Assembly: GCA_964462535.1 (NCBI GenBank)
Contig: CAYWXV010000012.1
Span: 16,601-80,600, forward strand
From: an uncultured Alphaproteobacteria bacterium
Lineage (GTDB): Bacteria; Bacteroidota; Ignavibacteria; OLB7
Reading direction: 5' to 3'
DNA length: 64,000 nucleotides
Shown here: in pieces, positions 1,562 through 42,521 of the stretch
How positions within the stretch are numbered: the stretch's first letter is position 1
Layout: every line of letters starts with the position of its first letter
The notes under the pieces: generated by a model
Database searches by the model: none
Told to the model about the DNA's origin: nothing
The model's input: only the letters and a program-made list of their open reading frames with translations
Position numbers and translations under genes: made by a program

Positions 1562-3958
1562 CTAAATATTTCGCTCGTAGATGCGGTACGTCCGGTAAGC
1601 CGACGCATTCATCATCTCGGCGGCACGGTTCATCATCATATTATCCTCCAGCACCCACGACGCCTCGCCAACCGGGCACCCCTTGACGACGGCCCGTTCG
1701 ATGATCTCGCGATACAGCAGGGCATCGATCGCCTTCCCATGGTACTCAGGGATAACGCCAAGGATGATGATGCGGAGCTGGTTGATGGCCTTCTTGTTGG
1801 TCATCAGATTCGTGATCGCCGTTGGCAGATTGAGTGGGCCGGAGGGGATTGACTTCCCGGCCTTGAAGGCCTGATTCACATCGGGGACGGCAAGGGCGAA
1901 GCCTACAGTCTTCCCATCCTGCTCGGCGAAGAGAACAAGATCCGGATCAATAACCTGTTTCAGCTCGCGGGCCATCATGTCCATCTCTTCGTCGGTCATC
2001 GGGACAAATCCCCAGTTCGGCTGCCAGGCTCGGTTGTAGATGGCCTTGATTCGTTCGACCTCGGGTCCGAACTGCTTCATCGAGAGGCTCCGCACTGTGG
2101 CACCCGTCCGTGCCCGGATCAAGTCCGTTACACGGACGAGCTTGTCCGTCAGCGCATCGGGATAGCAGAGGCGCCACGCGTAGAGGTCCTTTGCCTTACT
2201 GAAGCCGGCTTTCTCGATCAGCGTGTTATAGTACTCGGGATTGTACGGCATCAGGAACGTGGGCGGGCCGTCGAACCCTTTGAGGAGCATGCCAACCTCG
2301 TCGTTCATCGACGGGGAGACCGGTCCGCGCATGGCATTCATTCCCTCACGACGCAGCCACTCGGCCGCTGCGTTGAGAAGAGTGTTCGCCACGTCCTGAT
2401 CATTGATGGATTCAAAGAATCCGAAGAACCCGACGCGATCGCTGTGTATTGCGTTGTGCCCTTCGTTCACGATTGCAGCGATACGCCCAACCGGCGTTCC
2501 ATTCCGTTCGGCGATAAAGAGCTGAATGCGCGCGTGATGGTAGAACGGATTCTTGTCTGTATCAAGCAGACGCATCCGGTCCATTTCAATCGGCGGCACC
2601 CAGTTTGGGTCGTCGCGATGGAGCTTCCAGGAGAGGCGGATGAACTGGAGCTTCCCCTTTCGCCCATCGACAGTGCGCACGCTTACATCGCCTGTTGTGG
2701 GAAGAGGAGCTGAAGCTTCGTCACTGTCAGCCTTCTGCTCCGCAGCAGTGGCCGGCGTGTCGCGGTCGAGTAGTCCCATCTCCGTTCCGATATCCTGGAA
2801 GAGTTCCAGAATGCGATCGAGATGGCTCTTCTCGTGTGTCGCCATGACGGACGTTCTCATCATCTGCATTCCCTGCATGACACCAGGCGAGATGAAGGCG
2901 TTAACGAAAACACCCGCGTCGAAGAGTCGTCGCCAGAAGATGAACGTGAGGGTGTCGTCGCCAATGATGACGGGTACGATTCCGGTCTTTGATTCGATGA
3001 TTCGGAAGCCCATGTCAACGAATCCCTTCCGGAGATAGTCGGCATTCCAGATCAGCTTGTCGATGAGATGCGGTTCATCCCGCATGATCCGAAGAGCGGT
3101 GAGGGCAGCTGCAACCGAGGCCGGTGTCGGTGAAGCCGAGAAGATCAGGGCCGGTGAGATGTGCTTGATGTAGTTGATCACCCGCTCGGCGCCGACGACC
3201 CATCCTCCAAGCGACGCAAGCGACTTTGAGAAGGTCCCCATCGTCAGGTCGACATCCGCGTCGAGTCCGAAGTAGCTGGCGGTTCCACGCCCCCCCTTTC
3301 CGATAACACCCAGGGCGTGAGCGTCATCCACCATCAGCCGCGCCCCATACTTCTTCGCGATCGTGTTCATCGATGGGAGGTCGACGATCTCGCCCGAGGT
3401 TGAGAATACTCCGTCGGTAACGATGAGCTTCCCTGCGTCTTTCGGCAGACGGGCGACCTGACGTTCAAGGTCGTCCATATCGCCATGCTTGTAGCGAACA
3501 ACGTCACCAAACGCTCCCTTTGCCATCAGTGTACCGGCGACAATGCAGGCGTGGTTATCCTTGTCGCTGATGACGTAGTCACCCCGCTGCACCAATGTCG
3601 GAATGATCCCCTGGGCGGTCTGGTAGCCCGTCGAAAAGAGGAGACATGCCTCCGTCCCCATGAAGTCGGCAAGCTCCTCCTCCATTTCTTCGTGCAGACG
3701 GACCGTACCCGTCAGGTAGCGCGACCCGGAGCATCCGGTACCGAACTTCTCGGTCGCCTTGATCGCCGCCTCCTTGACACGTGGATCGGCAGTAAGGCCT
3801 AGATAGTTATTCGACCCCCCCATGATCACCTCGCGCCCCTCAATGCGGACCACCGGCCCCTCGTTCTCCTCGATCGCCCGGAAGTACGGATAGTACCCTG
3901 CTTCCTTCACATCATCGGCGCGCGTGAATTCAAGACACTTCTGAAACAGTTCTGCCAA
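1562..3958 (-). CDS. spt: Serine palmitoyltransferase (AOS/class II PLP) fused to a bacterial ceramide synthase-like GNAT domain
   Basis: N-terminal half: [38 protein letters not shown] and the PLP-Lys motif GTFSKS. C-terminal half: [43 protein letters not shown] and [10 protein letters not shown] short acidic/Ala linker joins them. TTG at 3958 has AGGAG upstream; the ORF extends to GTG at 4027. Confidence 0.8.
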
Positions 3959-4081
3959 GGACGGATCTCCTGCGTTGCTGAGTTCGTTCGCTTTCTCCCC
4001 GAATACCACAGGAACCGCACCGCTCACCGGGGAGAAGCGCCGAAGATAGTAATGGAAGGATTGTTGGATTGTATGAGATGG

Positions 4082-4840
4082 CTACTGCGACACGCGCATC
4101 AGTTCCTCGACACGCATGACGTCCTCTGGTGTGTCAACAGAGTGCCCTGCGTACTCCGTGCGGACGACCCGCATTTCCAACCCCAACTCGAGGAGCCTCA
4201 ACTGCTCAAGCTGTTCCGCTGTTTCCAGTGACGAGGGAGGGGCGGCGACGAACGCTCTCAGCGCGTCCGGACGGTATGCGTAAATGCCAATGTGGCGATG
4301 GTAGAGCGTTGCTGTGCTCCACTCCTCCGGTGGCAGGTCGCGCATGCACGGGATAGGCGACCGAGAGAAGTAGAGGGGGACGTCGCCGTCTCGGAGGACC
4401 ACCTTCACGACATTCGTGTCGAACAGGTCTCTGGACGATTCAATGCGGGAGACGGCAGTTACGCACGCGGCGCTCCCTCCAACGAGTTTCTCAACCAGTC
4501 GATTGAGCAGGTCAGGGTCGATCATCGGCTCGTCACCCTGCACATTTAGAACCGCAGAGACAGACCCGGCGGTGTCGGCAGATAGGAGTTCAAGCGCCTC
4601 GGCGATGCGATCCGAGCCGGAGGGGTGCTCGGTAGACGTCATGACCGCGTGGCCCCCGAACCGATGCACTGTCTCGAGGATGCTGGGATCATCCGTGGCC
4701 ACGACGACCCGGTCGACACGTGTTGCGGCGGTGACCCGCTCATACACGTGTTGGATCATAGGGCGCCCCAACAGCTCAACAAGCGGCTTCCCTGGGAGGC
4801 GACTCGAGGCGAATCTCGCCGGAATCAAAGCGACAACCAT
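4082..4840 (-). CDS. kdsB: 3-deoxy-manno-octulosonate cytidylyltransferase
   Basis: Motifs IPARFASSRLPGKPL, SGSDRIAEA, NVQGDEP, HIGIYAY and EQLEQLRLLE. Confidence 0.95.
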   Translation of the reverse strand: MVVALIPARFASSRLPGKPLVELLGRPMIQHVYERVTAATRVDRVVVATDDPSILETVHRFGGHAVMTSTEHPSGSDRIAEALELLSADTAGSVSAVLNVQGDEPMIDPDLLNRLVEKLVGGSAACVTAVSRIESSRDLFDTNVVKVVLRDGDVPLYFSRSPIPCMRDLPPEEWSTATLYHRHIGIYAYRPDALRAFVAAPPSSLETAEQLEQLRLLELGLEMRVVRTEYAGHSVDTPEDVMRVEELMRVSQ

Positions 4841-8052: not shown

Positions 8053-9309
8053 ATGTCATCCGCTAAATCCGTGCATGCCGACAGATTCTCCCGGGGCTTT
8101 CGGGTCGGTCTGGTCTGTGCGGCGCTCACACTTGCGATAGTCGCCGCGGCTATCGGCGTGTTGGTGGATGTGTCATTCATCCAGGATCCCGCCCTCCGCG
8201 AGATCCTGGCGAGCAATACACCACACGTGTACGTCGGTTCAGTCCCGCTCAAGCCTCGCACCCGAAGGACACTGCTGTCAGTCGGTGACCGGACCGTGCT
8301 CGAGGTCGTGAAAAACGTTCCACCCTCCACCCGTCCGGAGCTGAAACCGTTCGTTGAGCTTGTTGCCCGTCTTGAAGGGATAGATCCGCAGATTACCACA
8401 GTATCCCCACGCGTTCAGCTGAGAGGCTTCTGCCGAAACGGCACTCGTTGTCGTCCCGTGACGGTCATGGGAATCCTCCCACGCAAGGAAGCGAAGTTTC
8501 TCCACGCCGGGGCCGCTGTGAACGACGAGAGTTTCGATGCTCTTGAGCGCACTCCCATGGGAATCGTCCTCAGCTCTGTCGTCGCCAACCATTTAGGTGT
8601 GGAGGTTGGATCGCGTGTTTCTCTCATCACAGCCACCGGCGCCGTTCGACAATTCGTGGTCGTGGGGGTCTTTGCAGCGCATTCCTCCGGCGGAGATTCG
8701 TTGACCACATACATCAATCTCGGGGGTGCGCAGTCGCTTCTTGGTCTGCAGCGGAATGCTGTGAGTGGAGTGGCCATCCGATTGGCCGACGCCGGACGGG
8801 CCGAGCGTGTCCGTGATCGGGTCGAACAGACTATCGGGTATAGTGCTGCGACCTGGGGCGAGGCGAACGCGCAACAGATCGAGTTCCAGTTCAAAGAGCG
8901 TTGGTTGATGTGGGTGGTAGTGGTACTGGCTCTCATCGTCGCTGTCGCCGGTGTGCGCGATGCGCTTTCCGCGCGTCACATCTCCGGACGTCTTTCCGGA
9001 CCCACACGCGCGGAGAAGAGAACGGCGAGTCTAGCGCTCGGTGGGCTCGTCGGGCTGGCAGCAGGAAGTATCGCATGTGTACTGTTCATTGGCCTCCCCA
9101 GAGTACTCGACCTTCGTCGCCTCCTCCCTGTCCACTACAACCCGCTTGACAGCACGGTTGCAACGATACCGGTTGAACCACATGTCGTTCCGGTTGTGGT
9201 TCTGTTCGCAGTTTCCATCCTCTCGGGTGTCATTGGCGGCGGGTTGTCTTCGCGATCGGTTGAGCAGCTTGCGCGCCCGTCGACGCAATTGGTTGGGGAG
9301 GAGACGTGA
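8053..9309 (+). CDS. MacB/LolE-like (FtsX) permease, divergent
   Basis: N-terminal TM, large periplasmic domain (GIVLSSVVANHLGVEVG, VVGVF) and three C-terminal TMs. Confidence 0.7.
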   Translation: MSSAKSVHADRFSRGFRVGLVCAALTLAIVAAAIGVLVDVSFIQDPALREILASNTPHVYVGSVPLKPRTRRTLLSVGDRTVLEVVKNVPPSTRPELKPFVELVARLEGIDPQITTVSPRVQLRGFCRNGTRCRPVTVMGILPRKEAKFLHAGAAVNDESFDALERTPMGIVLSSVVANHLGVEVGSRVSLITATGAVRQFVVVGVFAAHSSGGDSLTTYINLGGAQSLLGLQRNAVSGVAIRLADAGRAERVRDRVEQTIGYSAATWGEANAQQIEFQFKERWLMWVVVVLALIVAVAGVRDALSARHISGRLSGPTRAEKRTASLALGGLVGLAAGSIACVLFIGLPRVLDLRRLLPVHYNPLDSTVATIPVEPHVVPVVVLFAVSILSGVIGGGLSSRSVEQLARPSTQLVGEET

Positions 9310-10565
9310 AGGTGTTCGCTGAGGTCTGGAGAGGGCTACGGCCGCAGAGAGGTCGCGCCGTTGTTGTCATGTGTGGCATGGCGTTCGGCGTCTCAGCCGC
9401 CATAGTCATGCTCTCCTTCTTCGCCGGACTCTTCGCCGCAAACGAGGCGCGAATTCTGAGTGGCGACCCGCATATTGTTGTGACTCAGCGCCAGGTCGGG
9501 GGCGCACCTGCGGATCTTCTGATTGACGAGAATGACGAAGTCGTTGAGTTGAAGCGATCGTTCCTGGGTGAAGGCGAAGGGAGAATGAGGAACGCGGTGT
9601 CAACGATGCGGATGATCGAACGTGACCTTCGTAACGAGGTCTCCGCCGTCAGTCCCTTCCTGGAAACACACTCGCTGGCGGTCTATGGGGTCAACGAGGT
9701 ACCGTTGGTGGTCAGGGGAGTCCTTCCCGCACGAGAGGTTGAATTGTCTCAGCTCGGCAGGCACTTGGAGGAAGGGGTAATCGGACGGTTTGCGAATTAT
9801 CGAAACGGGATTCTGCTTGGTTACCGCGCCGCCGCACGCTTGGACGTTCATGCCAACGATCGAATTCGCCTTGTGGCTCTCGATGGAACGCTCATCCCGG
9901 TCCAAATCGCCGGAGTCTACCGTTTCGACATCCCCGCCCGTGATGAAGGTTGTCTCGTCAATCTTCGACTGGCGTCGTCGGTTGCGGGAACGTTGCCCGG
10001 TGAGGCAAACGGCATCGCAGTAAAGACGGCGGACCCGGAGAGGTGCGATGAGGTTGCCCGCATGCTTGAACGCTTGACGGGGTTAGGTACGGTCACGTGG
10101 GAGGAGGCGCACGCCGATTCCTTGTCAGTCTTTAGCTTCGTGCGTTTTCTGGCACTCGCCATTCCGTTGCTCCTGATAGCTCTGACGGCGCTGGCCCTTG
10201 GCCGGCTGCTCACGATTGCTTGGATCAAACCTGTGATGCCCGTTGATTTGGATAGCGCGCGAGACGTCGGAACGACGCGATCGTCGTTGATGCGCGGGCT
10301 TGTGCTTTCAATGCTGCCCGCCTCGGTGGGTGTAGTTGCCGGTGTTGTGGCCATTCTGGTGGTGAGTCCTGCCCCGCTACTGCTCTGGCTCCTCCCCAAT
10401 CCGTTCGATATCTCCGCGGTACCGATGAGCTTGCACCCCTGGTACATTCTGGGCTCGTTTGCGCTTGCGTGTATTGGGACGGGGCTTGCATCAGCGCAAT
10501 ACGCGCGAACCTTCGGGTTGCCCAGGTCTTCGCCACGTATGCAGCTGGATCCCGCGGACGCATAG
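9306..10565 (+). CDS. MacB/LolE-like (FtsX) permease, second, divergent
   Basis: GMAFGVSAAIVMLSFFAG, GILLGYRAAARL and QIAGVY motifs; start overlaps the previous stop (GTGA). Confidence 0.7.
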   Translation: MKVFAEVWRGLRPQRGRAVVVMCGMAFGVSAAIVMLSFFAGLFAANEARILSGDPHIVVTQRQVGGAPADLLIDENDEVVELKRSFLGEGEGRMRNAVSTMRMIERDLRNEVSAVSPFLETHSLAVYGVNEVPLVVRGVLPAREVELSQLGRHLEEGVIGRFANYRNGILLGYRAAARLDVHANDRIRLVALDGTLIPVQIAGVYRFDIPARDEGCLVNLRLASSVAGTLPGEANGIAVKTADPERCDEVARMLERLTGLGTVTWEEAHADSLSVFSFVRFLALAIPLLLIALTALALGRLLTIAWIKPVMPVDLDSARDVGTTRSSLMRGLVLSMLPASVGVVAGVVAILVVSPAPLLLWLLPNPFDISAVPMSLHPWYILGSFALACIGTGLASAQYARTFGLPRSSPRMQLDPADA

Positions 10566-10638
10566 TCTGGTTCCACTCGTACCTTCGTGCCTCCCGTCCT
10601 CGAAACCTGCTCAATAGATTTTGACACGCCTCCGCATC

Positions 10639-11961
10639 ATGCGACTGCTTCTCATACCTCTTCTTCTGCTGCTGGCCGCAACCGGAGACCTGCGCGCGCA
10701 GGTAAGAAGCGTCAATCTGCCGGATGCGGTGCGTATGGCCGAGGAGGAGAGTCTCGAGATCAAACGGTTGAGCCTCGCGGTCCAGAGGGCCGCGACGGGT
10801 GTGGAGAGCCTGCGTGAAGAATATGGACCCGAGGTGTTCGTGGAGGGCGAGTACAGGCTGACCCCGCAACCAGACATTCTCTTCACGAACCCGGACGTGG
10901 CGTTTAACACGACTGGTGAGATGGACGCACTTGTTACGGGCGGTCATCACGTAACCGGGGCCACAATTGCTGCGAGACTGCCGTTGTACGATCCGCGACG
11001 TCGGTTGCGACTGCGGGTCGCAGAGTCTGGCGTATCAGTGGCGCAGGCGGAATTGGATGTTGCGCGCGCCTCGTCGCGAAGAAACGTCGAGCGCCTGTTT
11101 TACCGTGCTCTTTATGCGCGGTACGAAAAGAAGACCAGGGAAGATCAGATCAATCAGGCCGTCACGAATCTGGAGTTCACTCTGGCCCGATTCAGGCAAG
11201 GGAGAGCTCTCCCGCTGGATACGGTAACTGCTGCGACCACTCTGGCCCGGGCCAGAGCAAGCGCCAGTCGTGCTGGTCTGTCGTACCAGGCCGCGCTCAT
11301 TCAGTTGGCTCGACGGATAGGGATTCGGGACGTGAACAATCTCGAGCTGGATGGATCGCTTGACCTTCCGAGCGCTCCGGGTCCGAGCGGCGGTGACATG
11401 ACGGTCGTACCAGGTATCCTGAACTCTGCGGAATTACAGTTGGCGCAGCAACGACTCGCTGCCTCACGCGTTGCCGTGGATGCTGAACAACGATCGATTG
11501 GCCCAACAATCGATCTGGTTGGGCGTGCTCGAGCACGGGGGGAAAGCGCCGACTACACTCCCGATCAGTGGGCATGGGGAATGACCTCCTTTGTTGGATT
11601 TGTCGCCCGCCTGAACCTGACGGAATTGTGGCGGGGCGATCCGGTGAGGGAGGGAGCGGAACTTCGCGTGCGCGAGAATCAACTCTCGATTGACGATATC
11701 CGCCGCGAAGACAGTATCGCCGTCGAAACTCTGCTGTTCGAAATGCAGGCAGCGCGGACCCAGATCGAGGCGGAAGAGGCGACGGTCGAACAATCGACGA
11801 GGGCTATCGAGATCACCACGATTCTCTATCGTGAGGGGAGAGCGACGTGGCTCGACGTCGAGACTGCCCAGAATCGGTTGTTGGAGACGGAACTCGCTTT
11901 GGAGAGGCTCAAGCTCCGCTTCCTTGAGAGCTATGCCGAGCTCAAAGCCATCGGCGGGTAA
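10639..11961 (+). CDS. TolC family outer-membrane efflux protein
   Basis: Signal peptide, repeated helical domains, RFRQGRA...D and YREGRATWLDVETAQNRL. Confidence 0.85.
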   Translation: MRLLLIPLLLLLAATGDLRAQVRSVNLPDAVRMAEEESLEIKRLSLAVQRAATGVESLREEYGPEVFVEGEYRLTPQPDILFTNPDVAFNTTGEMDALVTGGHHVTGATIAARLPLYDPRRRLRLRVAESGVSVAQAELDVARASSRRNVERLFYRALYARYEKKTREDQINQAVTNLEFTLARFRQGRALPLDTVTAATTLARARASASRAGLSYQAALIQLARRIGIRDVNNLELDGSLDLPSAPGPSGGDMTVVPGILNSAELQLAQQRLAASRVAVDAEQRSIGPTIDLVGRARARGESADYTPDQWAWGMTSFVGFVARLNLTELWRGDPVREGAELRVRENQLSIDDIRREDSIAVETLLFEMQAARTQIEAEEATVEQSTRAIEITTILYREGRATWLDVETAQNRLLETELALERLKLRFLESYAELKAIGG

Positions 11962-12084
11962 GCCTGCGGCACGCGACCGCGGCACCTACGCGCACTCCGT
12001 ACCGCGCGTGAAACCAAGTGCCCGATGTAAGTCTCCACCCTACCGCAAGCGATCAACCACTCACTACGCACTGTCGACACAGCG

Positions 12085-13866
12085 ATGTCCAACTCACGAC
12101 TGCAGAACGCCATTGATTCGATCCGCGAAACGCTTGTACGATTCCCACTTCCTTTGCTGGACGTGCTAATACTGGTTGGCGCAACGATGAGCTGGGTGGA
12201 CGATTACCGATGGTACGTGATTCCCGCCCTGGGATTTCCGGTACTCATTGCCTCATCTCTCTTTGCGGAGCGCTTCACCGGGTCCAGGGGCATACGGTTC
12301 GTCGTCGCGTTCGCTCCAATCCCGCTTCTAACTCTCTACGCGTTTCTTCTTCCAGAGGGGCATGTCAATTTTGCGGAAGGGCTGCGATTCGCTCTCTTCT
12401 GCATCGCGGCAGTCCTCGCGATGCTGGCTCTTCCATTCGTTGCACCGCGCACGACCGCCTCGTTCCACCGGTTCGCGACCACCTTTATTCTCCGTCTCCT
12501 CCTCACCGCACTCTTCACGCTCCTCCTCTGGGGGGGGCTATCGCTTGCGCTTCTCGCCGTCGACAAACTCTTCAGCGTCGCTGTGCCGAGCGAGACGTAC
12601 GTAAAGCTCATTGTTCTCCTCATCGGCTTCGTGGCTGCACCATTTCTGCTTTCCAGTGTGGAGCGTGACCTCGATGTGCAGGAGAGTGAGATCCCGAAGG
12701 TTCTCCGTGCGCTCACGCTCTATGTGCTGATGCCGATCCTGGTCGTGTACGCTCTTATTCTCTATGCTCACGCTGCACAACAGATAGTCAATTGGGAGTG
12801 GTCGGAAGGATGGGTGGCGCGACTCGTCGCAGGTTATGCAGGGGCTGGGCTACTGACGTTTGCTATCCTATGGCCTCATCGGAGCGATCCCGACAATCAG
12901 TGGATTCGCGTCTTCACGAAATGGTTCTCGCTACTTCTGCCTCCGCTCTCGTTTCTCTTGCTCATCGCTGTTCTCCGGCGCGTAAGTGAATACGGCATCA
13001 CTGAGACCAGATATTATGGAATGCTCATTGCTGTTTGGCTCGCGGTGGTGGCACTATACCTGCTCTTCAGTCGCAAGGCAGATATCCGCGTGCTGGCTCT
13101 GTCACTTGCGGTGCTGGCGCTTGGGACATCGTTTGGTCCGTGGGGGGCCAGCGCTATCTCTGTGCAGAGTCAAGTGGAGCAGCTACGGAGCGCGTTGGAT
13201 TCCGTTGGTGCCTTGAAGAACGGGAAGTTTGCTTCCCCAGCCGCACCGCTCGACGAAGCAGCGCTCGGTCGTCGCAGCGTCTACTCAATCGTCCGCTACC
13301 TGGAAGAGCGCGACGCGCTAGAACACTTGCGTCCCTGGTTCACGACGCCTCCGGACACGATTGACGAGCGTGCTGTTATGGTCGCGATTGGAAGCTGGAC
13401 AGATTCGCCGGACGAGGGGGGACCGAAGGTGCGCCCCGTTCGGACGATTGCGATTTACGGCCCGGGGGGCGAGACGGTGAACGTGTCGGGCTACGACTAC
13501 TACATCCCACTAACGCAGTCGATGACGTCAACCCCTGTTGCCGGTGACAGCCTCACTATCCAGGTGAGTCGAGGGGGAGTACACCTGTTTCTCCGAAGCC
13601 GTCACCTTCTGTCGGCCGACCTGGTGGGGCGATTCCAAAATCTCTATCGAGAGCGTGCAACGAATGCTGAGTCCGACGATGAGAACTCATCCTATGAGAG
13701 TATATCGATACCCCCGGAGGATGAGGACCGCATGATCGTTGACGTCGACGACGCTGCCACAGGGTACCGCATGCGGGTCTATGTGCGTCAGATTGCGTTC
13801 TACGAATCCGACTCTCCGGGCGAACTTCAGAATCTGACGGGATATGTTCTCGTAGCGAAGAGGTGA
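12085..13866 (+). CDS. DUF4153-like polytopic membrane protein
   Basis: About 10 TMs, VLMPILVVYALILYA, RVSEYGITETRYY and GPWGASAISVQSQ. Confidence 0.75.
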   Translation: MSNSRLQNAIDSIRETLVRFPLPLLDVLILVGATMSWVDDYRWYVIPALGFPVLIASSLFAERFTGSRGIRFVVAFAPIPLLTLYAFLLPEGHVNFAEGLRFALFCIAAVLAMLALPFVAPRTTASFHRFATTFILRLLLTALFTLLLWGGLSLALLAVDKLFSVAVPSETYVKLIVLLIGFVAAPFLLSSVERDLDVQESEIPKVLRALTLYVLMPILVVYALILYAHAAQQIVNWEWSEGWVARLVAGYAGAGLLTFAILWPHRSDPDNQWIRVFTKWFSLLLPPLSFLLLIAVLRRVSEYGITETRYYGMLIAVWLAVVALYLLFSRKADIRVLALSLAVLALGTSFGPWGASAISVQSQVEQLRSALDSVGALKNGKFASPAAPLDEAALGRRSVYSIVRYLEERDALEHLRPWFTTPPDTIDERAVMVAIGSWTDSPDEGGPKVRPVRTIAIYGPGGETVNVSGYDYYIPLTQSMTSTPVAGDSLTIQVSRGGVHLFLRSRHLLSADLVGRFQNLYRERATNAESDDENSSYESISIPPEDEDRMIVDVDDAATGYRMRVYVRQIAFYESDSPGELQNLTGYVLVAKR

Positions 13867-13935
13867 CGCGGGCATTCACGGGAGCGTGACCCGGCGCCCG
13901 ATTTGTTGCGGCGCATCCAACTAACAGTCGCCCGG

Positions 13936-15360
13936 CTACAGTCGCCCGGCTTTCTGATTCTCGCTGCGATTGCTCGTCCATCGTGCCACTCGCATCCCTA
14001 CGCGTCCCACGGTCGCCTTGGCCGCGTGAATGGCTGCCGCGCGTGAGAGCCTCCTTCCGCTACGCGCAAGCTTGTGTAGTTCAACCTCGTGTACCATCCG
14101 TCTGAGGGCGTGCCGATAGTATGCGTCTGAGTAGGGGCGAGTGTATCGTAGGTCACGATCGCTCGATGCTTCCCACGATGCTGGTTCGATAAGTTCCTCG
14201 CGCACCTGATCGTGGAACGGTGTTCCCGTGATTGGATAGGCGGTAGTGACAGTGAACAGATCGGGCGACGCGGTCTTCAGGTGCTCGATTGTCATGAGAA
14301 TATCCTCCTCCGTCTCCCCCGGATATCCAAGCATGATGAACGTCCCTGTCTCGATACCACGTTCTCGACAGAGTCGAATCGATCGTTGCACCTGTTCAAC
14401 AGTAACGCGACGATCCATCGCATCGAGTATGCGTTGCGATCCGCTTTCAGCCCCTATCCAGACACGGCAGGCCCCCGACTCTGCCAGCAGGTCGGCCGAC
14501 CGTTCGTCTAGTCGGTCGGCACGCGTGATGCATTCGTACGGCATACGCACACGTCGCTCCTGGATTTGACCTGCAAAGCCCTCGGTCCATGTCGCATTGA
14601 TGGTGAAGACGTCGTCGACGAACCAAATCAGTTCCGGATTCCACCGATCCCGGATCATCTCCATCTCATCAACAACAAGAGTCGGCGATCTGCGGCGATA
14701 GGTCTCGCCATAGACGGCTCGGCTGCACCAACGGCAGGTGAACGGGCAACCCCGCATGGTACTGATCGATACCGCTCCGGCTCCGTGGTGACGTCTCCAA
14801 ACGTCCAGATACCTCTGAAGATCGATTGCGTCACGTTTCGGCATTGGAAGGGAATCGATCTGCTTCAGAAGGGGTCGGGGAGAGGTGCGAATGACACTTC
14901 CGTCCTCACGTCGGAATGCAACGCCTGCCACGTCACTCAAATCGCCACCGCGAAGAACAGTCTCAATGACTTCGGTTGTGGTAATCTCCCCCTCGCCAAT
15001 TACTATCACGTCCGCACCGTGCTCCAGCAGCCGGTCAGCGTGAAACGTCACTTCCGGACCCCCCAGAATAATCGTCGTATTCACCAGCACCGGCGTTGCC
15101 CTGATTGCTGCAACCAGGTTGAGAACATTACTTCTCGTCATCAGCGTCACGTAAATCCCAACGAATCTGGGCTGCGCGGCGCGGAGACGTTCCATCAACG
15201 CATCGAACGAAGAGAACGTGGTGTCGAATACATCGACTTCGATTGCTTCACGTTCGACCCATGCGGCAATCGACAAAAGACCCAGCGGCGGATACGGTCG
15301 CATGACTGCACGCTCGCGCGGATCGTCTGCCAGAAAATATGCGTGAGTGAGAAAGAGCAA
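13936..15360 (-). CDS. B12-binding-domain radical SAM protein
   Basis: PYPPLGLLSIA, LGGPEVT, IGEGE, and the CxxxCxxC motif in TMRGCPFTCRWC; FVDDVF, IGAESGSQRILDAM, FIMLGYPGETEED. Confidence 0.92.
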   Translation of the reverse strand: MLFLTHAYFLADDPRERAVMRPYPPLGLLSIAAWVEREAIEVDVFDTTFSSFDALMERLRAAQPRFVGIYVTLMTRSNVLNLVAAIRATPVLVNTTIILGGPEVTFHADRLLEHGADVIVIGEGEITTTEVIETVLRGGDLSDVAGVAFRREDGSVIRTSPRPLLKQIDSLPMPKRDAIDLQRYLDVWRRHHGAGAVSISTMRGCPFTCRWCSRAVYGETYRRRSPTLVVDEMEMIRDRWNPELIWFVDDVFTINATWTEGFAGQIQERRVRMPYECITRADRLDERSADLLAESGACRVWIGAESGSQRILDAMDRRVTVEQVQRSIRLCRERGIETGTFIMLGYPGETEEDILMTIEHLKTASPDLFTVTTAYPITGTPFHDQVREELIEPASWEASSDRDLRYTRPYSDAYYRHALRRMVHEVELHKLARSGRRLSRAAAIHAAKATVGRVGMRVARWTSNRSENQKAGRL

Positions 15361-17773: not shown

Positions 17774-19093
17774 ATGAAGCAGAACGAACTCATACTAGAA
17801 TACCTGGACGGCACACTCGATCCGGCTGCCGAACAGGAACTCTTCGAGACCCTGGCCGGGCAACCTGAACTCCGCACGACACTTCGCGGTTTTGTGCAGA
17901 TAGGGGACGCCGTCCGTGGCGATCGCGAAGCTTTCACGCCGCCGGCAGCGGTGGAGGCTTCGTTGATGCGACGTTTGGGGCTCGCCGCGGTGCCCGGTAA
18001 CTCCACGCGTGGAGCCGGCCTGCTCGCGTTCTTCCGGACCAGGGCATTCGGTCTGGCGGCTGCCTTCCTGCTCGGAGCGCTGTTGACGGCCGGCATCTAC
18101 CGTGTTGCCGTTAGATCCGACATCGCCCAAACCGGGCCGGTAGTCAAGACCACCGGGAGTGACACGCCACGTCGGGCCATCGAGTCTGCACTGAAATCGC
18201 CGAGCACTGTCCCCGCATCCGGCGCGAGCACGATTTCCAGCGAGCAGCAGGTTCCCAAGTCGTCTGCGAACAGTTCCGAGGTGCCGCCGCTTTCTGCGCC
18301 TCAGTCCGCTTCGATTAGTGGAGAGAATCGTTCAACAACAGCGACGACAGTTGTGAATCGCGTCCCCAGGGTGCGAACCACACCCAGCTTGCCGGTAGTT
18401 GCTTTGCAGAATGATGTGGACCAGAACGGCCCACCGCCGCGAAGAGCGTCGCGGGACATTATGAGAAGCTTGTATGGCGATGACTCTGAGCACCTGTTGA
18501 CAACCCGAAACGGCCGACCGCCCGACATCGTCGACCGGTCGACGACCTATCCGCGACTGAATTCGGCGGCCACGCTCGGGATCGATCTCTCTGTCCCCGA
18601 TGAGACGACGCGCGGCGACTGGATCGTTGAACTCCGCCATGGATTTGCTTCCACGGACCTGGAGACTGTGGAGGCGCTCAACCCCTCGACGTCCTGGGTA
18701 GAGGACGGGGCATTGGGGGTCTATCGTCATGTCGGATCCAACGTCGCACTCGGTGTCGAGCTTGGAGCCGAGCGCTACTCGCAGCGAATTCCCCATGTGG
18801 CTGCGGACACAGTCGCGATAGATCAGCGTCCCCTGTACACCTGGGGGGGTGCGGCAGTGAGGTATTTCCCAGGCAGAGTCATTGGACTGGACCCCATGTT
18901 CCAGGGAGGTTTCGGTATCGCTTCGGCCGGGCCCGTGGTGAGAGGCCGATTTGGCCTTTCGCGCGACATTCTATCGGGCTTCAAGGTTGCCCTGGGAGTG
19001 GAGTCGTCCGCACTCATGTATAAGGCGGGCGACGTGCGACAAATCAGCGGGCGGTGGGGGGGATTCGCAGGGCTGGAGGTCATGGTACCATGA
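17774..19093 (+). CDS. Putative dual-membrane-spanning anti-sigma factor (anti-sigma N-terminus, TM, S/P/T-rich linker, C-terminal beta-barrel)
   Basis: LILEYLDGTLD..EQELF (anti-sigma-like start), one TM (AFGLAAAFLLGALLTAGIY), ~170 aa low-complexity linker, and ~160 aa of alternating beta-strands; lies directly after the ECF sigma. Confidence 0.65.
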   Translation: MKQNELILEYLDGTLDPAAEQELFETLAGQPELRTTLRGFVQIGDAVRGDREAFTPPAAVEASLMRRLGLAAVPGNSTRGAGLLAFFRTRAFGLAAAFLLGALLTAGIYRVAVRSDIAQTGPVVKTTGSDTPRRAIESALKSPSTVPASGASTISSEQQVPKSSANSSEVPPLSAPQSASISGENRSTTATTVVNRVPRVRTTPSLPVVALQNDVDQNGPPPRRASRDIMRSLYGDDSEHLLTTRNGRPPDIVDRSTTYPRLNSAATLGIDLSVPDETTRGDWIVELRHGFASTDLETVEALNPSTSWVEDGALGVYRHVGSNVALGVELGAERYSQRIPHVAADTVAIDQRPLYTWGGAAVRYFPGRVIGLDPMFQGGFGIASAGPVVRGRFGLSRDILSGFKVALGVESSALMYKAGDVRQISGRWGGFAGLEVMVP

Positions 19094-19824
19094 CACTGAG
19101 ACCAGCGTTCGGTCCGTTCCTTCTGTCGCTGATCGCGCTGCTTCTACCGGCCTGCGACAACGTCTCCGTCGACAAGGAGACCGCGAACGCCGTTCTGCGC
19201 GAGCGGGACACAATCGTTTCGCCACCCGACACCATCGTAATTGTTCGCGACTCGATCGTGGAGATTGTTGAGCATGACACAACGATCATAACGGAGCACG
19301 ACACAGTCAGAATCGTTGTGCGCGACACTGTTCGCATTGACACTCGCGGACGCGAATGGGAGGGTGGGCTTGTCCTGTTCAATCCGTCACTCGCGGGCGA
19401 GGTCTTGATCGACTCGCTTGCCTCGTATGTGCGGATCAGAATTGATGGCGGCTTGCCAAGGTCTATGGACCTCGTACTTCTGGCCCGGTCGGCAGAACGA
19501 CCGAAGCCCCCTCCGTTCCGAACACCGTCGTGGATTCATCTCGCGGTCACCGGCTACTCCTTCTCGCCTTCCACCGTCGTGCCCCTTACGGCCGATCCCG
19601 CTCGAACGACGTCGGGAAATGGCATGGGTGTGTTGTTCCGGTCAGAGGAGAGTGAGCAGGTCCGTTGGTTCTCCACCGTCGACCGGAGCACCGGGAATAT
19701 CAAGGCGACGGTCGATCCCACTCTCCGGCGTATCGGTATCTCGGCGTCCGGAACGTTTTTCATTGCGGACTCAGCGTCACCGACGGTCAAGGTCGACAGT
19801 CTGTGGGCTGTTGTGAGATACTAG
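19090..19824 (+). CDS. Hypothetical lipoprotein with (R/H)DT(I/V) repeats
   Basis: ATGA overlap with the previous stop, lipobox LLPAC, and repeats RDTIV/PDTIV/RDSIV/HDTTI/HDTVR/RDTVR. Confidence 0.7.
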   Translation: MTLRPAFGPFLLSLIALLLPACDNVSVDKETANAVLRERDTIVSPPDTIVIVRDSIVEIVEHDTTIITEHDTVRIVVRDTVRIDTRGREWEGGLVLFNPSLAGEVLIDSLASYVRIRIDGGLPRSMDLVLLARSAERPKPPPFRTPSWIHLAVTGYSFSPSTVVPLTADPARTTSGNGMGVLFRSEESEQVRWFSTVDRSTGNIKATVDPTLRRIGISASGTFFIADSASPTVKVDSLWAVVRY

Positions 19825-20134
19825 CTTGCGGGAACGGTGTCAGTCGTCCTCGTTACGTGCGCTCAAGGCGTGCAGCCGAATCCATGGCGTTCGACCGATG
19901 GATCAGCGGAACGGCGTTGCGCCTCATGATGGGTGTGATCCCCTGGACCCAGGCGGCAGGTGGTTTGGTCGGAGCGTACGTAGCGTTCACGTTATGCTGC
20001 GCAGAGACGAGCGAAGAATGTGTACCGGAGGCGCGCCGCGGTGAGAGATGAGGATCGCAACGTAGAGATCGCGCGCATGTAACGATCCTCCGGTACGACG
20101 CGTGTCCTGCCCCCTTCCGGCAGGTTGCCACACA

Positions 20135-21238: not shown

Positions 21239-21895
21239 ATGGCCCAACTCTTCAAACCGATATCCAACATCCTTGCTCGGTTGAGCATCGTCGGCGGCGG
21301 ACTCCTGGCATTCGGCGGACTTTTTCTGCTCAACCAGGCCTTCCGCTCGGACTTCGTAACGCTTGCCGACGTCGTCCGGGAACAGCCGGTTCCTTTCAGT
21401 CATGAGCACCACGTTCGTGGGCTTGGGATTGACTGCCGCTACTGTCACACGTCGGTGGAGTTCTCCAGCGTGGCGGGTATTCCCCCCACGGAGACCTGCA
21501 TGAGTTGTCATTCGCAGATCTGGACGAATGCCGCAATTCTTGAGCCGGTGCGATCGAGCTTCAAGACCGGGCAGCCGCTTCGATGGAATCGGGTGCACGA
21601 TCTTCCCGATTTCGTCTACTTCAACCACAGCATCCACATCAACAAGGGCATTGGCTGCGAAAGCTGTCATGGTCGTGTCGATCAGATGCCGTTGATGAGA
21701 GCGGGAAGTCCGCTGCAAATGGCTTGGTGTCTGGACTGTCATCGCGATCCCGCCAAGAATATCCGTCCGAAGGATCAGGTTTTCACGATGGGCTACAAGC
21801 CAGCGGAGAGCCAGGCAACGCTTGGACCGAAGCTGGTCAAGGAATACAACGTCAACGTCAGGCAGCTCACGAACTGTTCGATTTGCCATCGCTAA
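21239..21895 (+). CDS. actA: Alternative complex III pentaheme cytochrome c subunit
   Basis: Five CxxCH motifs (CRYCH, CMSCH, CESCH, CLDCH, CSICH), QPVPFSHEHH and LPDFVYFNHSIH. Confidence 0.93.
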   Translation: MAQLFKPISNILARLSIVGGGLLAFGGLFLLNQAFRSDFVTLADVVREQPVPFSHEHHVRGLGIDCRYCHTSVEFSSVAGIPPTETCMSCHSQIWTNAAILEPVRSSFKTGQPLRWNRVHDLPDFVYFNHSIHINKGIGCESCHGRVDQMPLMRAGSPLQMAWCLDCHRDPAKNIRPKDQVFTMGYKPAESQATLGPKLVKEYNVNVRQLTNCSICHR

Positions 21896-24800
21896 TGACG
21901 AACGAGATACACCTTAGCAACGGCGCCGCGCCGCCGGAAGAAGGAAGGATGGGTGAAGGGTTGGACGCCGCAAACGGGGAACTTCGAATCCTGACGGAGA
22001 GCGAGTCCCCCGTTGTCTATCAAGACCCCGCATTCGACATCGAAGCGCTTCGACAAAAGGTTGCCGAACGCTCCGGTCGCGAGTACTGGAGGGGGCTTGA
22101 TGAGCTTGCGGAGACGCCGGAGTTCCAGGCGCTTCTGGAGAAGGAATTCCCCGATGGCGCCGCTGAATGGAACGACCCCGTAGGGAGACGTCACTTCATG
22201 AAACTCATGGGTGCGTCGGTCATGCTTGCCGGTATCGGCGCATGCACGCGTCAGCCCGAAGAAAAGATTCTTCCCTATGTAAAGGCGCCCGAGCAGTTCA
22301 TTCCGGGACGGCCGATATACTTCGCAACGGCGATGCCTCTTGCCGGATACGGCACAGGATTGCTTATCGAGAGCCACACCGGGCGCCCCACGAAAGTGGA
22401 GGGGAACCCCGACCACCCTGCGAGTCTTGGAGCAACGGACTCGTTTGCCCAGGCCTCTGTCCTCCAGCTGTACGACCCGGATCGATCGCAGACCATCCGG
22501 AACAAGGGGACGTTCTCAACCTGGGAGAAGTTCACGGCGGCCGTTAGTGATATGGTCAGCACGTGGAAGAGCAATGGTGGGGAAGGACTCCGCATAGTAA
22601 CCGAGACCGTTTCGTCGCCGACGATGGCCGGTCAGATGAACACGCTGCTGGCAAAGTATCCGAACGCGAAGTGGATCCAGTATGACCCGGTCTCGCGTGA
22701 CAACGTCCGTGACGGGGCAAAGCTCGCGTTTGGGGAGTATGTAGAGACAACCTACCGGTTTGGCAGCGCGGAGGTCGTCCTCTCCATCGATTCGGATTTC
22801 CTGCTGCAGATGCCGGGGAGCGTCCGCTACGCCCGCGACTTCGTGGCGAAGCGGAAGGTGACTAACGGTTCGACCACCATGAACCGCCTTTACGCGCTCG
22901 AGTGCTCGCCCACGATTACCGGTGCGAACGCGGATCACCGCAAGGGACTGAAGCCCTCTGCGTTGGAGGGCGTCTTCTGGAGAATTGCCGCTGATCTTGG
23001 AGTCTCCACGCCCGCGGGGGCGACGCCTGCCCAGGGGGACAAGTGGACCGAGGCCGTTGTTCGCGATCTGAAGAAGAACAGCGGGAAGTCGATTGTCGTA
23101 CCTGGCGACCATATGTCGCCGGCCATTCATGCGGCCTGTCACGCAATCAACGCTGCTCTCATGAACGCAGGAACAACCGTCGTCTATACGGCGCCGGTTG
23201 AAGCGGCACCGCAAAATCAAATGGCGGCCCTGAAGGACCTTGCTGCGGAGATGGCGGCAAAGAAGGTTTCGACGCTTGTCGTCATTGGAGCCAATCCTGT
23301 CTTCACTGCCCCGGCCGACTTGAAGTTCGGAGACGCGATCCGAAACGTGCCGAACGTGATTCATATGGGACTCTATGCCGACGAGACGGCATACTTCGCA
23401 CAGTGGCACATTCCGGCGCTTCACTACCTGGAGGATTGGAGTGACGTCCGTGCGTTCGACGGCACGGTGTCGATCGTGCAGCCGTTGATCGCGCCGATGT
23501 ACTATGGCCACTCGGCTCATGAGCTTCTCGCAACGATGATCGCGCAGTCGGGCGGACCGACATCTGCGTACGACATCGTCCGTGCGTCATTCCAGGGTCC
23601 GGGAGCGAAGGCTGCTCCCGCAGTTGCCGACACTGCGGCAGCCGCGCCAGCACCCGCAGCGCCAGCACCGGCTGCTACTCCTGCGCCTGCCGCAACTCCT
23701 GCCGCCGCTCCGGGAGCACCTGCGCCGGGAGCACCCGCCCCGGTCGCCGCGCCTGCTGCGGGAATGGAAGCCGCATGGGCGAACGCCCTGCATGACGGTG
23801 TCGTTGAAGGGACGGCCCTCCCAGCGCTCAGCCCCACGTTGGACGCGACCTGGTCATCACGCGCTCAGATCGCGAAGGTTGATGGGAGTGGGATGGAGCT
23901 TGTCCTGCGCGCCGACACGACGATCTATGATGGTCGGTTCGCCAACCTGGGATGGCTCCAGGAACTGCCGAAGTCGATGACCCTCCTCACATGGGAGAAC
24001 GCGCTCCTTCTTGCTCCTTCGGACGCCGAGCGGCAGGGGCTGGGGAATGGCGATGTGGTCAAGGTGACAATGGGTGGCGGTTCGGTAGATGTACCTATCT
24101 GGATCACTCCTGGACAGCCAGCCGGAAGCTGCACGCTCAACTTTGGCTACGGACGCGTTCATGGCGGCCGCGTAGCCAATGGGACGGGGGTGAACGCCTA
24201 CGTTCTGCGCACGACGGCTGCCCCGTGGTGCGGCGTGGCAACAGTTGCGCCGACGGGTGACCACATTCCCCTGGCCACGACGCAGACGCATCACAGCATG
24301 GAAGGGCGTGATATCGTCCGTGGCGGAACAATCGACGATTACGTCAAGAGCCCGACGAAGGTCAACAAGCCGGCCGGTGTCGGTACACATGCCGAACCGG
24401 ACGCGAAGCCGCCCGAACTGGAGGACTCGTTCTACCCCGACTGGCCCTATGAAGAGGCCGCTTGGGGTATGACGATCGATCTGACGTCGTGCATCGGCTG
24501 CAACGCGTGTATGATCGCGTGCCAGTCGGAGAACAACATTGCCGTGGTCGGCAAGGAACAGGTGTTGAAGCATCGCGAGATGCACTGGATCCGCGTAGAC
24601 CGCTACTACTCTGGCGATCTGGATCAGCCACATTCTGACTTCCAGCCGGTTCCATGCATGCAGTGTGAGAACGCTCCGTGCGAGCCGGTCTGCCCTGTTG
24701 GAGCAACCGTGCATGGTGATGAGGGGCTGAACGACATGGTTTACAACCGCTGCGTCGGCACTCGGTACTGCTCGAACAACTGTCCCTACAAGGTTCGTCG

Positions 24801-25169
24801 CTTCAACTATCTCCTCTTCAGCGATCTGGAAACGGAGTCGTTGAAACTTGGACGCAACCCGGATGTGACCGTTCGAAGCCGCGGTGTGATGGAGAAGTGC
24901 ACCTATTGCGTTCAGCGTATCAATCACGCCAGAATCGAGGCCAAGAAGGACGGACGCGATGTCGCCGATGGCGAGATCGTCACCGCCTGCCAGCAGGTCT
25001 GTCCCACCGAGGCCATCGCCTTCGGCAATATCAATGACCCGAAGAGCCAGGTGGCTGCGATGAAGAAGCATCCGCTGAACTACAGTCTCCTTGCCGATCT
25101 GAACACGCGTCCCAGGACGACCTATCTGGCGCGGCTCCGTAATCCGAATCCCGAACTGGAGGGTGTTGC

Positions 25170-25173
<4 letters not shown>
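21895..25173 (+). CDS. actB: Alternative complex III subunit B (molybdopterin-oxidoreductase-like domain plus 4Fe-4S domain)
   Basis: [10 protein letters not shown], Tat [10 protein letters not shown] with lipobox [45 protein letters not shown] and CTYCVQRI; start overlaps the actA stop (TAATG). Confidence 0.93.
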
Positions 25174-26561
<1,388 letters not shown>

Positions 26562-26582
26562 GAGACCGCAGAGGATCAACAC

Positions 26583-27134
26583 ATGTCGTACACAACAGCC
26601 GACGCTCCTGCGATCTACGGAATGATGGCGGAGTTCGAGACTCCCGAGGCTCTCGTGGCCGCGGCGAAGAAAACGGAGCAGGCCGGGTATACGGTCTACG
26701 ATGCATACACGCCATTTCCCGTTGAAGAACTGGAGGACGCTGTCCCCCGTTCGGGCCCCTATGTCGGGCTGCTTGTTCTGATCGGTGGGCTCAGTGGCGT
26801 TCTTCTTGGCTTTCTGATGGAGGCCTACCTTGCGGGGGAGTATTACCCCATCAATGTGGGTGGGCGACCACTCCTCAGCTGGCCTGCATTCATCCCCGTG
26901 GCCTACGAGTGCGGGATTCTACTGGCATCGTTCAGCGCCGTCTTTGGTATGCTGGGTCTGAACGGATTCCCGATGCCATATCATCCGGTCTTTAACATCG
27001 AGCAGTTCGAGCGGGCCTCGCTCGACCGGTTCTTCCTGACGATTGAGTCGGCCGATCCAAAATTCGATCAGGCGGACACAACCCAGTTCCTCCAGGGACT
27101 GGGAGCTGCATCGGTCGTGCAGGTACCTGCCTAG
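26583..27134 (+). CDS. actD: Alternative complex III subunit D (DUF3341)
   Basis: DAYTPFPVEEL, YPINVGGRPLLSWPAFIPVAYE and DRFFLTIE. Confidence 0.93.
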   Translation: MSYTTADAPAIYGMMAEFETPEALVAAAKKTEQAGYTVYDAYTPFPVEELEDAVPRSGPYVGLLVLIGGLSGVLLGFLMEAYLAGEYYPINVGGRPLLSWPAFIPVAYECGILLASFSAVFGMLGLNGFPMPYHPVFNIEQFERASLDRFFLTIESADPKFDQADTTQFLQGLGAASVVQVPA

Positions 27135-27229
27135 GGAACTGGAGTCGATCCAAATGGAACGACCCCGGAAATGGATCGATTGACACAGGCAAATCCAACA
27201 GCAACCCGACAACACAGGACACCCAGTCC

Positions 27230-27856
27230 ATGTCATTGTTCGCATTCATACATCGTCGAAGCCGGATCGCAGCAGGGATGGCTCTTGCCGCCGTTGCGAT
27301 TTCCGTCGGTGGTTGTCGACTTGAGATGTACGACCAGCCGAAGGTGCGAGGGTATCGCGCCAGCAACTTCTTTGCTGACAGCCAGGGTGTACGACCGCAG
27401 GTGGAGGGGACTGTTGCGCGAGAGAGTGCGTGGCCGACTCGCTTCAAGCCGACCGCCGGGTTCGATGCCAACATGCGCTCGAAGCCAGGCGTCGCCGCGA
27501 TTCCAGCCGATAGCTCAAATCCATATGCACTGACGAAAGAGTTTCTTGTTCGCGGACACGAGCGCTTCAACATCTACTGCTCCCCGTGCCACGGGCGTCT
27601 TGGGGATGGTCAGGGGATGATTGTGAAGCGTGGTATGCCGACGCCGCCAACGTATCACTCCGAGCGCCTCCGGACCGTCAAGGATGCCTACATCTATGAC
27701 GTCATCACGAACGGATTCGGCCGGATGTACGGTTACGCATCGAGGATCTCGTCGGAAGATCGCTGGGCAATTATCGCCTACGTCCGCACGTTGCAGTTCA
27801 GCCAGAACGCTCCGAAGGAGTACATGGCCGAGTCTACCGGAACCACTTCGAAGTAA
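27230..27856 (+). CDS. actE: Alternative complex III monoheme cytochrome c lipoprotein
   Basis: Lipobox VGGC, EMYDQPK, CSPCHG, and YDVITNGFGRM..YA..I..EDRWAI..YVR. Confidence 0.92.
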   Translation: MSLFAFIHRRSRIAAGMALAAVAISVGGCRLEMYDQPKVRGYRASNFFADSQGVRPQVEGTVARESAWPTRFKPTAGFDANMRSKPGVAAIPADSSNPYALTKEFLVRGHERFNIYCSPCHGRLGDGQGMIVKRGMPTPPTYHSERLRTVKDAYIYDVITNGFGRMYGYASRISSEDRWAIIAYVRTLQFSQNAPKEYMAESTGTTSK

Positions 27857-27860
27857 CGTG

Positions 27861-29072: not shown

Positions 29073-29571
29073 TCACAACGAACCGAACGATCCCAATCTG
29101 CACGAGAACTGGGATCACGAGCACGAGCGGCGCGACGTCAACGCGAAGTCGATCAACCGTTCGATGATCTATCTTCTGGTCGTCGTCCTTGGCTCGGCCT
29201 TCTTCGTAGTCTGGCTGTTCAATCAGTACGAGGGGATGGCGGAGAAGCGGGACGTGGCACGACCGCCAGTCGCCGACAGTCTGGAGATGCCTCCGTTTCC
29301 ACGTCTTCAGGCGAATCCTATGAAGAATCTTGCCGAGTTCCGCTCCCACGAGGATTCGGTGCTGAACAGCTACGGCGTGGCCGATAGCGGAATTGGTGCG
29401 GTACGTATTCCGATCGACCGGGCTATTGAAATAGTTGCAAGCCAGGGGAAGGTGCCGGCTATGCCGATGCCTCCTCCATCTGCCACTGCACCTCATGACA
29501 CGACGGTGAATGCACAGGGTACGACCAATGAAAACGGACAGAGCGCCACGCAGCAAGCGGGAGGCGCATAG
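29065..29571 (+). CDS. Single-TM protein, probable ActG-like subunit
   Basis: HERRDVN + TM + PPFPRLQANP...L.SYG.AD...VRIPIDRAIE; sits at the ActG position. Confidence 0.6.
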   Translation: MSSHNEPNDPNLHENWDHEHERRDVNAKSINRSMIYLLVVVLGSAFFVVWLFNQYEGMAEKRDVARPPVADSLEMPPFPRLQANPMKNLAEFRSHEDSVLNSYGVADSGIGAVRIPIDRAIEIVASQGKVPAMPMPPPSATAPHDTTVNAQGTTNENGQSATQQAGGA

Positions 29572-30376: not shown

Positions 30377-30381
30377 CAGGT

Positions 30382-31311: not shown

Positions 31312-31399
31312 GAGCTGGGGGTTGCGCCGACCGGGCGGCGGGGATTGACGACACGCGGTTTGACAGGAAGAACAAAAGACACGCATACGGAATAGAGTA

Positions 31400-42490: not shown

Positions 42491-42521
42491 ACCCCCGGGG
42501 AACCTGTGAGGAGTGCGGGGT

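Follow-up and report, generated by a model that had tools for sequence, protein, structure and literature searches.

In Caulobacter crescentus, the serine palmitoyltransferase Spt (CCNA_01220) and the ceramide synthase bCerS (CCNA_01212/CC_1154) are cytoplasmic and the reductase CerR is periplasmic, and deletion of cerR leads to the accumulation of oxidised ceramide (PMC11087976). In B. fragilis, keto-dihydroceramide accumulates after loss of cerR, and 3-ketosphinganine (3-KDS) builds up after deletion of the CCNA_01212 homologue (bioRxiv 10.1101/2023.05.23.541633). The order of the bacterial reactions is disputed between two groups, one placing acylation first and the other a eukaryote-like reduction. 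Here we describe a single gene, located in a 64-kb stretch of contig CAYWXV010000012.1 from an uncultured bacterium of Bacteroidota/Ignavibacteria type (the whole stretch, 64,000 nucleotides, is referred to as the window), that joins an Spt-like domain to a bCerS-family domain; its product is probably a bifunctional enzyme of the cytoplasm that catalyses steps one and two of ceramide synthesis in bacteria. The two protein families and the predicted chemistry are those of the Caulobacter enzymes and of the Sphingomonad pair Swit_3900 and Swit_3908, whereas in those bacteria the genes are separate and lie approximately eight genes apart. Identity to the Caulobacter and Sphingomonad proteins is low (~33% for bCerS and ~38% for Spt) and, unlike their genes, the window fusion has no acpR, aasR or cerR neighbours. 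The closest characterised relative of the N-terminal domain (N-domain) is Sphingobacterium multivorum Spt (3A2B, 8GUH), which shares all of its active-site residues but is a stand-alone enzyme of 399 amino acids (aa) that has no acyltransferase domain. The fusion gene and its parts are as follows.

1562 to 3958, minus strand: Spt-bCerS fusion gene, 798 aa, with stop codon at 1562-1564 and TTG start at 3956-3958 (open reading frame (ORF) listing, Shine-Dalgarno-like site and homologue N-termini)
3966 to 3971, minus strand: Shine-Dalgarno-like AGGAGA, separated from the TTG start by a spacer of 7 nucleotides (nt), read directly from the sequence
2768 to 3958, minus strand: Spt-like alpha-oxoamine synthase domain, residues 24-420 (PF00155, NCBIfam, PDB and tree)
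3224 to 3226, minus strand: codon of K268, the predicted pyridoxal phosphate (PLP)-binding lysine of the GTFSKS motif and counterpart of Lys244 in S. multivorum Spt (alignment to 8guh)
2687 to 2767, minus strand: interdomain linker, 27 aa, acidic and rich in Ala, Pro and Thr, varying in length and sequence among fusions
1565 to 2686, minus strand: bCerS-family tandem-GNAT domain, 374 aa (profile, BLASTP, AlphaFold2 (AF2) model and Foldseek)

On the minus strand, the ORF is uninterrupted between 4027 and 1562 and would encode 821 aa if counted from the furthest GTG, the numbering used here for all residues of the fusion protein. The TTG at 3958 is the likely start, and 1562-3958 the best gene model, because the AGGAGA site precedes this codon and the N-termini of all aligned homologues coincide with it, including that of a 798-aa protein of 100% identity (P0001). 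These coordinates, and a single uninterrupted ORF, had been given by the original prediction from the sequence alone, and the ORF listing, the AGGAGA site and the homologue starts all agree with them; the YPYFR and GTFSKS motifs and the linker letters that it quoted were likewise all found in the translation, the linker letters being followed by TTGD. GC content is even along the window (0.55-0.62). Among the best 120 database clusters (90% identity, independent assemblies), 113 carried both domains in one ORF and in the same order, and an assembly or sequencing artefact as the origin of the fusion was therefore ruled out.

Within the N-domain, Pfam Aminotran_1_2 (PF00155) covers residues 71-408 (E 6e-50). 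The NCBIfam Spt model SerpalmtaseCFB scored highest (474 bits), ahead of a BioF/Kbl-related subfamily (380), Kbl (351), BioF (350) and ALAS (221), and a PDB sequence search returned S. multivorum Spt as the top match (385 bits, 48% identity), followed by Sphingomonad Spt (~270 bits), Kbl (~243), cysteate acyltransferase (28eh; 216) and BioF (~172). Ten residues with established roles in the active site of S. multivorum Spt (PMC10196870) have counterparts in the fusion, with K268, H159, D234, H237, T265 and S267 aligning to Lys244, His138, Asp210, His213, Thr241 and Ser243, and S209, N73, G101 and S102 to Ser185, Asn52, Gly80 and Ser81; all ten are invariant over 21 aligned fusions (alignment A1). 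In a neighbour-joining (NJ) tree of 394 columns, the N-domain grouped with S. multivorum Spt and with Spt-like genes linked to bcerS, Sphingomonad Spt formed the sister group, and E. coli Kbl (33% identity) and BioF (29%) fell outside. The Spt identity first assigned to this domain from its motifs thus agrees with the best hidden Markov model (HMM) and PDB matches and with a position in the tree beside characterised Spt and apart from BioF and Kbl, the comparison by which it had been proposed to check the assignment. Accordingly, we place the N-domain with characterised Spt and predict that it is an intact alpha-oxoamine synthase dependent on PLP.

The C-terminal domain (C-domain) matches Pfam GNAT (PF00583) in two stretches; for the whole fusion protein, the GNAT match spans residues 659-796. 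We linked it to bCerS by position and homology, through a published Sphingomonad orthologue that is 45% identical to the Caulobacter protein. In the S2B table of PMC11324152, Swit_3900 is entered as Spt and Swit_3905 and Swit_3906 as paralogues of LptF/G; the Caulobacter ceramide synthase CC_1154/CCNA_01212 has its orthologue, at 45% identity, in Swit_3908. With the S. wittichii Spt sequence, taken from a PDB alignment, we gathered 80 Sphingomonadaceae spt loci, and in each sufficiently long locus the C-domain family profile matched exactly one ORF (E 1e-89 to 1e-98), 6-9 kb downstream of spt and on the same strand. Locus L004, in which Spt is 94% identical to that of S. wittichii, has the order CerR-like, Spt, histidine kinase, further ORFs, LptF, LptG, fatty-acid hydroxylase and the 382-aa matching ORF, and since the latter follows LptF2, LptG2 and the fatty-acid hydroxylase it occupies the position of Swit_3908. 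BLASTP aligned the C-domain to this ORF (18880-20028) end to end (33% identity, E 1e-67). The fatty-acid hydroxylase gene directly upstream of bCerS is a feature of the Sphingomonad clusters (18116-18880 in L004).

Across 90 members of the family, 24 Sphingomonad bCerS proteins among them, 20 residues are at least 95% conserved (including E788, W791 and N796), and the fused C-domain retains them all. Its AF2 model is a tandem GNAT (pLDDT 84.8, pTM 0.83), and the nearest Foldseek matches are tandem-GNAT amine N-acyltransferases (E 1e-14 to 1e-10, TM ~0.6, 10-13% identity). The clavulanate protein CBG (2WPW), glucosamine N-acetyltransferase (5KF1), MAB_4324 (7Q3A) and MshD (1OZP) share this two-GNAT fold but differ in that their donors are acetyl instead of long-chain acyl groups and their acceptors are unrelated, and they are not members of the bCerS family. 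A PDB sequence search returned no relative of the C-domain, and NCBIfam and Pfam, neither of which has a bCerS model, gave no bCerS-specific match; the latter result is uninformative, because the genuine Sphingomonad orthologue likewise has no NCBIfam match. Proteins of the BioF2 type in Mycobacterium tuberculosis also fuse an alpha-oxoamine synthase to an acetyltransferase, of the 'BioF2-like' family (PF13480), in the opposite order and with a different GNAT subfamily, and no PF13480 match was found by Pfam in the window C-domain. By homology, fold and context the C-domain is a bCerS-family member with a predicted ceramide synthase activity, and the assignment of a GNAT-like domain to bCerS in the original prediction is upheld by its full-length homology to the protein at the Swit_3908 position and by its tandem-GNAT fold. 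A separate database protein of 784 aa (P0121) contains two tandem copies of the bCerS-like tandem GNAT and no Spt domain.

To place the fusion among its relatives, we compared 86 loci: 80 obtained from a metagenome scan, L001, L083-L086 and the window itself. They were classified as follows.

41 of 86 loci: spt followed directly by a separate bcerS
6 of 86 loci: spt and bcerS fused
21 of 86 loci: Spt-like gene, the next 1.5 kb or more downstream being free of bcerS
3 of 86 loci: bcerS elsewhere in the locus
15 of 86 loci: too short at the ends to classify

The adjacent pair of separate genes was the common state. In L001, a standalone Spt-like protein (P0112) is 72% identical to the N-domain; its gene is followed by one whose 375-aa product shares 46% identity with the C-domain, and preceded by a divergent CerR-like epimerase/3-beta-HSD gene. 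Such split cerR-spt-bcerS clusters (for example L001 and L087), found in uncultured FCB-group and other bacteria, share the gene order of the window fusion, with 72% identity in Spt and 46-50% in bCerS, and differ in having a stop codon and short spacer at the position of the linker and an adjacent CerR-like gene, which is missing beside the window fusion. A CerR-like gene was present in 31 of the 41 split-pair loci, at a distance of 300 nt or less in 23. Among the 21 Spt-like genes that have no bcerS in reach (L108, L115, L121, L131, L133, L138, L145, L146, L151 and others; 49-68% identical to the N-domain), the flanks reach the full 10 kb in some, and in a few (L118, L119 and L137) the only neighbour of interest is CerR-like. 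L159 has a single spt and two bCerS-like genes downstream of it, at 11038-12327 and 13511-14728.

The junctions of the split pairs consist of a genuine stop codon followed by a proper start, with an Spt end of '...GKxLGLI' and a bCerS start of 'M..I.V.PV', and these are the exact two edges of the 27-aa linker in the window, which argues that the linker corresponds to the former stop codon and spacer. Linkers across the fusions range from 0 to 93 aa (median 28) and are rich in Ala, Glu, Thr, Pro, Asp and Ser. The two genes are in the same reading frame in 22 of the 41 split pairs (L087-L124 and L001), so that loss of one stop codon could fuse them; approximately one third would be expected by chance, but the loci are not independent and the excess of in-frame pairs may reflect shared ancestry. 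Programmed read-through or recoding at the split junctions was considered and rejected, as the in-frame stops are mixed (TAA 11, TGA 7, TAG 4) and proper starts follow them. We therefore propose that the fusion would have been derived from an adjacent spt-bcerS pair through loss of the stop codon, the old spacer becoming a flexible linker.

NJ trees of the two domains were broadly congruent, and in each the fused proteins formed three clades nested among split lineages.

Fused clade 1: the clade of the window, 63-89% identical, with source names Kapabacteria, Ignavibacteriae, Chlorobi or Bacteroidetes
Fused clade 2: P0098 and P0099
Fused clade 3: the P0103-P0120 group and L105

This pattern suggests at least three independent Spt-bCerS fusion events, and none of the 86 loci contained an ORF joining a CerR-like domain to Spt or bCerS. 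A survey of how the fusion is distributed had been proposed by the original prediction, and the fusion proved to be widespread; the adjacent split genes had been overlooked there. P0118 (713 aa) was examined as a possible fusion of Spt to another partner and rejected, its extra 317 residues being domainless and probably an over-extended gene call; further unusual arrangements proved to be partial fusions or a tandem bCerS-like duplication. No natural Spt-bCerS fusion was reported in the literature searched, where narrower searches returned reporter fusions only; the scope of the search lay outside the primary 2022 bCerS paper, where a passing mention is possible. Source annotations name the fusions '8-amino-7-oxononanoate synthase' or 'aminotransferase class I/II-fold PLP-dependent enzyme' and, once, 'bifunctional ... 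/GNAT family'.

The window also encodes a second, free bCerS-family protein that had been missed in the initial reading and was found by tblastn.

36506 to 37639, minus strand: free-standing paralogue of 377 aa from the bCerS family, sharing 52% identity with the fused C-domain (tblastn)
37790 to 42547, minus strand: TamB-like gene, the next gene upstream of the paralogue in a conserved operon (Pfam TamB and DUF748)

The paralogue is preceded by the TamB-like and rfaE-like genes and followed by an RlpA-like gene (accompanying ORFs at 42522-44059 and 35497-36411, both on the minus strand), and the rfaE-TamB-paralogue-RlpA order is kept in L167 and L168. L167 is on the same 3.2-Mb contig as the fusion P0028, at a distance of ~1.46 Mb, and both the fused and free copies are kept in genomes of the window's clade. 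In the NJ tree of C-domains, the clade of the free paralogue falls together with bCerS genes that lie beside spt in related lineages. In L168, a fatty-acid hydroxylase gene (12093-12725) lies ~3 kb from the free paralogue.

The immediate surroundings of the fusion gene comprise the following neighbours.

4082 to 4840, minus strand: kdsB (CMP-Kdo synthetase), the upstream neighbour (Pfam and NCBIfam), its position kept in the fused locus L083
4847 to 5140, minus strand: gatC, upstream of kdsB (Pfam GatC), kept in L083
536 to 1480, minus strand: downstream partner, a ~314-aa secreted beta-rich protein, the ORF of which starts 30 nt past the fusion stop

The order gatC-kdsB-fusion-secreted protein is kept in L083 and the fusion-partner pair in both L083 and L084, where proteins 50-57% identical to the partner occupy the same place (12547-13500 and 12599-13534, respectively). 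The partner carries a signal peptide and is predicted to form beta strands, its single-sequence structure model has a pLDDT of 33, too low for use, and no match to it was found in Pfam, NCBIfam or a PDB sequence search. A profile built from four CerR-like proteins matched the window with 12 bits at best, no ORF in the window had a Rossmann/SDR motif, and Pfam searches on 20 further ORFs gave housekeeping genes only, in agreement with the earlier statement that the window holds no CerR candidate. In two distant fusions a CerR-like gene is close by: in L085 (region 9003-13258) it overlaps the fusion start by 13 nt and a PAP2-family gene follows the fusion, which suggests a compact cerR-fusion-headgroup operon, and in L086 it lies 3 kb downstream. 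Elsewhere in the window, positions 21583-33779 (plus strand) encode molybdopterin/4Fe-4S and NrfD-like proteins, identified by Pfam, and cytochrome oxidase subunit-like ORFs, recognized from their translations only, consistent with an alternative complex III and oxidase region.

Based on homology, the N-domain would condense L-serine with an acyl thioester to form 3-ketosphinganine and the C-domain would then N-acylate its free amine to yield 3-keto-dihydroceramide, the ketone of which may be reduced by a CerR-type reductase encoded elsewhere. We speculate that placing both active sites on one polypeptide could keep the reactive, membrane-active amino-ketone from escaping. Both substrate channelling and this reaction order are plausible. 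The original prediction took the fusion as support for acylation before reduction, and that much stands, since the fusion is compatible with this order and its recurrence strengthens the case, but neither the order nor channelling is proven by it. Recurrent fusion of these two enzymes would add independent comparative support for acylation before reduction, short of proof.

Several points weigh against this interpretation. An enzyme fusion does not imply that the two reactions follow one another, nor does a flexible linker amount to a channel, and no CerR-like gene is present in the 64-kb window or, in the two closest fused relatives (L083 and L084), within 10 kb. The N-domain score of 474 bits is below the NCBIfam Spt equivalog cutoff of 640 (NF047600), as is that of the bcerS-adjacent Spt-like protein of L001 (480 bits), and a Sphingomonad Spt control exceeds the cutoff of its own NCBIfam model (796 against 670). 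Because all alpha-oxoamine synthases share the conserved active-site residues, these do not fix the amino-acid substrate, and their conservation is best read as a sign of an intact enzyme rather than of serine specificity. With 8,656 clusters at 50% identity, mostly free proteins of ~375 aa, bCerS is a very large family, and the window holds a second member of it, so that belonging to the family is not enough to fix the acyl acceptor. Furthermore, all of the trees are neighbour-joining trees without support values.

These points leave room for three other explanations, the strongest of which concerns the order of the reactions. With the same Spt and bCerS domains, 3-ketosphinganine could leave the enzyme, be reduced by a separate reductase and return as sphinganine to the C-domain, the fusion serving co-expression or stoichiometry. 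A eukaryote-like order of this kind was proposed for Caulobacter by Olea-Ozuna and co-workers (as summarised in PMC11324152), bCerS might acylate both 3-KDS and sphinganine (PMC11087976), and a long flexible linker (median 28 aa) by itself creates no channel. We consider it unlikely, given that oxidised ceramide is the product seen in the Caulobacter cerR mutant, where CerR is separated from the two cytoplasmic enzymes by its periplasmic location (PMC11087976), that keto-dihydroceramide is found after loss of cerR in B. fragilis (bioRxiv 10.1101/2023.05.23.541633), and that Spt and bCerS were fused three times whereas a CerR-like domain was part of no fusion in the 86 loci.

The remaining explanations concern the substrates of the two domains. 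The sub-cutoff score of the N-domain would suit an enzyme that uses alanine, glycine or cysteate and leads to an N-acylated 1-deoxy-, nor- or sulfono-type aminolipid instead of a true ceramide precursor: S. multivorum Spt takes alanine and glycine at low efficiency (PMC10196870), 1-deoxy- and sulfono-ceramides are known from environmental Bacteroidota and Desulfobacterota (PMC11334938), and the cysteate acyltransferase 28eh is a detectable relative (216 bits). The match to true Spt is nevertheless far stronger than that to the cysteate enzyme (385 vs 216 bits), the residues that contact the hydroxyl and carboxylate network of serine (N73, G101, S102 and S267) are conserved, and relatives occur in canonical cerR-spt-bcerS clusters, all of which make another amino-acid substrate improbable. 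Least probable is that the fused C-domain is a diverged paralogue with another acceptor or a regulatory, non-catalytic role, and that the free copy at 36506-37639 is the real ceramide synthase. Its retention in the genome, its conservation over the clade and its grouping with spt-adjacent bCerS genes in the NJ tree would fit that role, but its conserved context is TamB, RlpA and rfaE rather than spt. The fused C-domain, for its part, keeps the complete set of 20 family residues, was joined to Spt independently three times and, as the congruence of the two domain trees indicates, co-evolves with the N-domain.

A bifunctional Spt-bCerS enzyme that catalyses the first two steps therefore continues to be the probable function of the fusion. 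A broader and rather doubtful extension is that the coupling has been selected repeatedly because 3-ketosphinganine passes directly from Spt to bCerS, leaving no free pool of long-chain base. On the same tentative footing, the window's clade (Kapabacteria, Ignavibacteria and Chlorobi-like lineages) would have lost the CerR neighbour and gained the conserved secreted partner, and may therefore end at oxidised (3-keto) ceramides or reduce them outside the cytoplasm by a non-homologous enzyme.

Overall, the fusion is a widespread, uncharacterised variant of a known pathway and not a new kind of system. Its occurrence in three lineages, none of which includes CerR in the fusion, would provide independent comparative evidence that the two enzymes act as a unit, and current annotation names conceal what is predicted to be an enzyme of a lipid pathway. 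The fusion also offers a ready-made, single-polypeptide system with which acceptor preference and channelling could be studied in vitro and oxidised ceramide produced in E. coli, and the TamB-linked paralogue may point to an additional aminolipid function of the large bCerS family at the outer membrane. Ultimately, these genes extend predicted sphingolipid synthesis to the Kapabacteria, Ignavibacteria and Chlorobi-type lineages.

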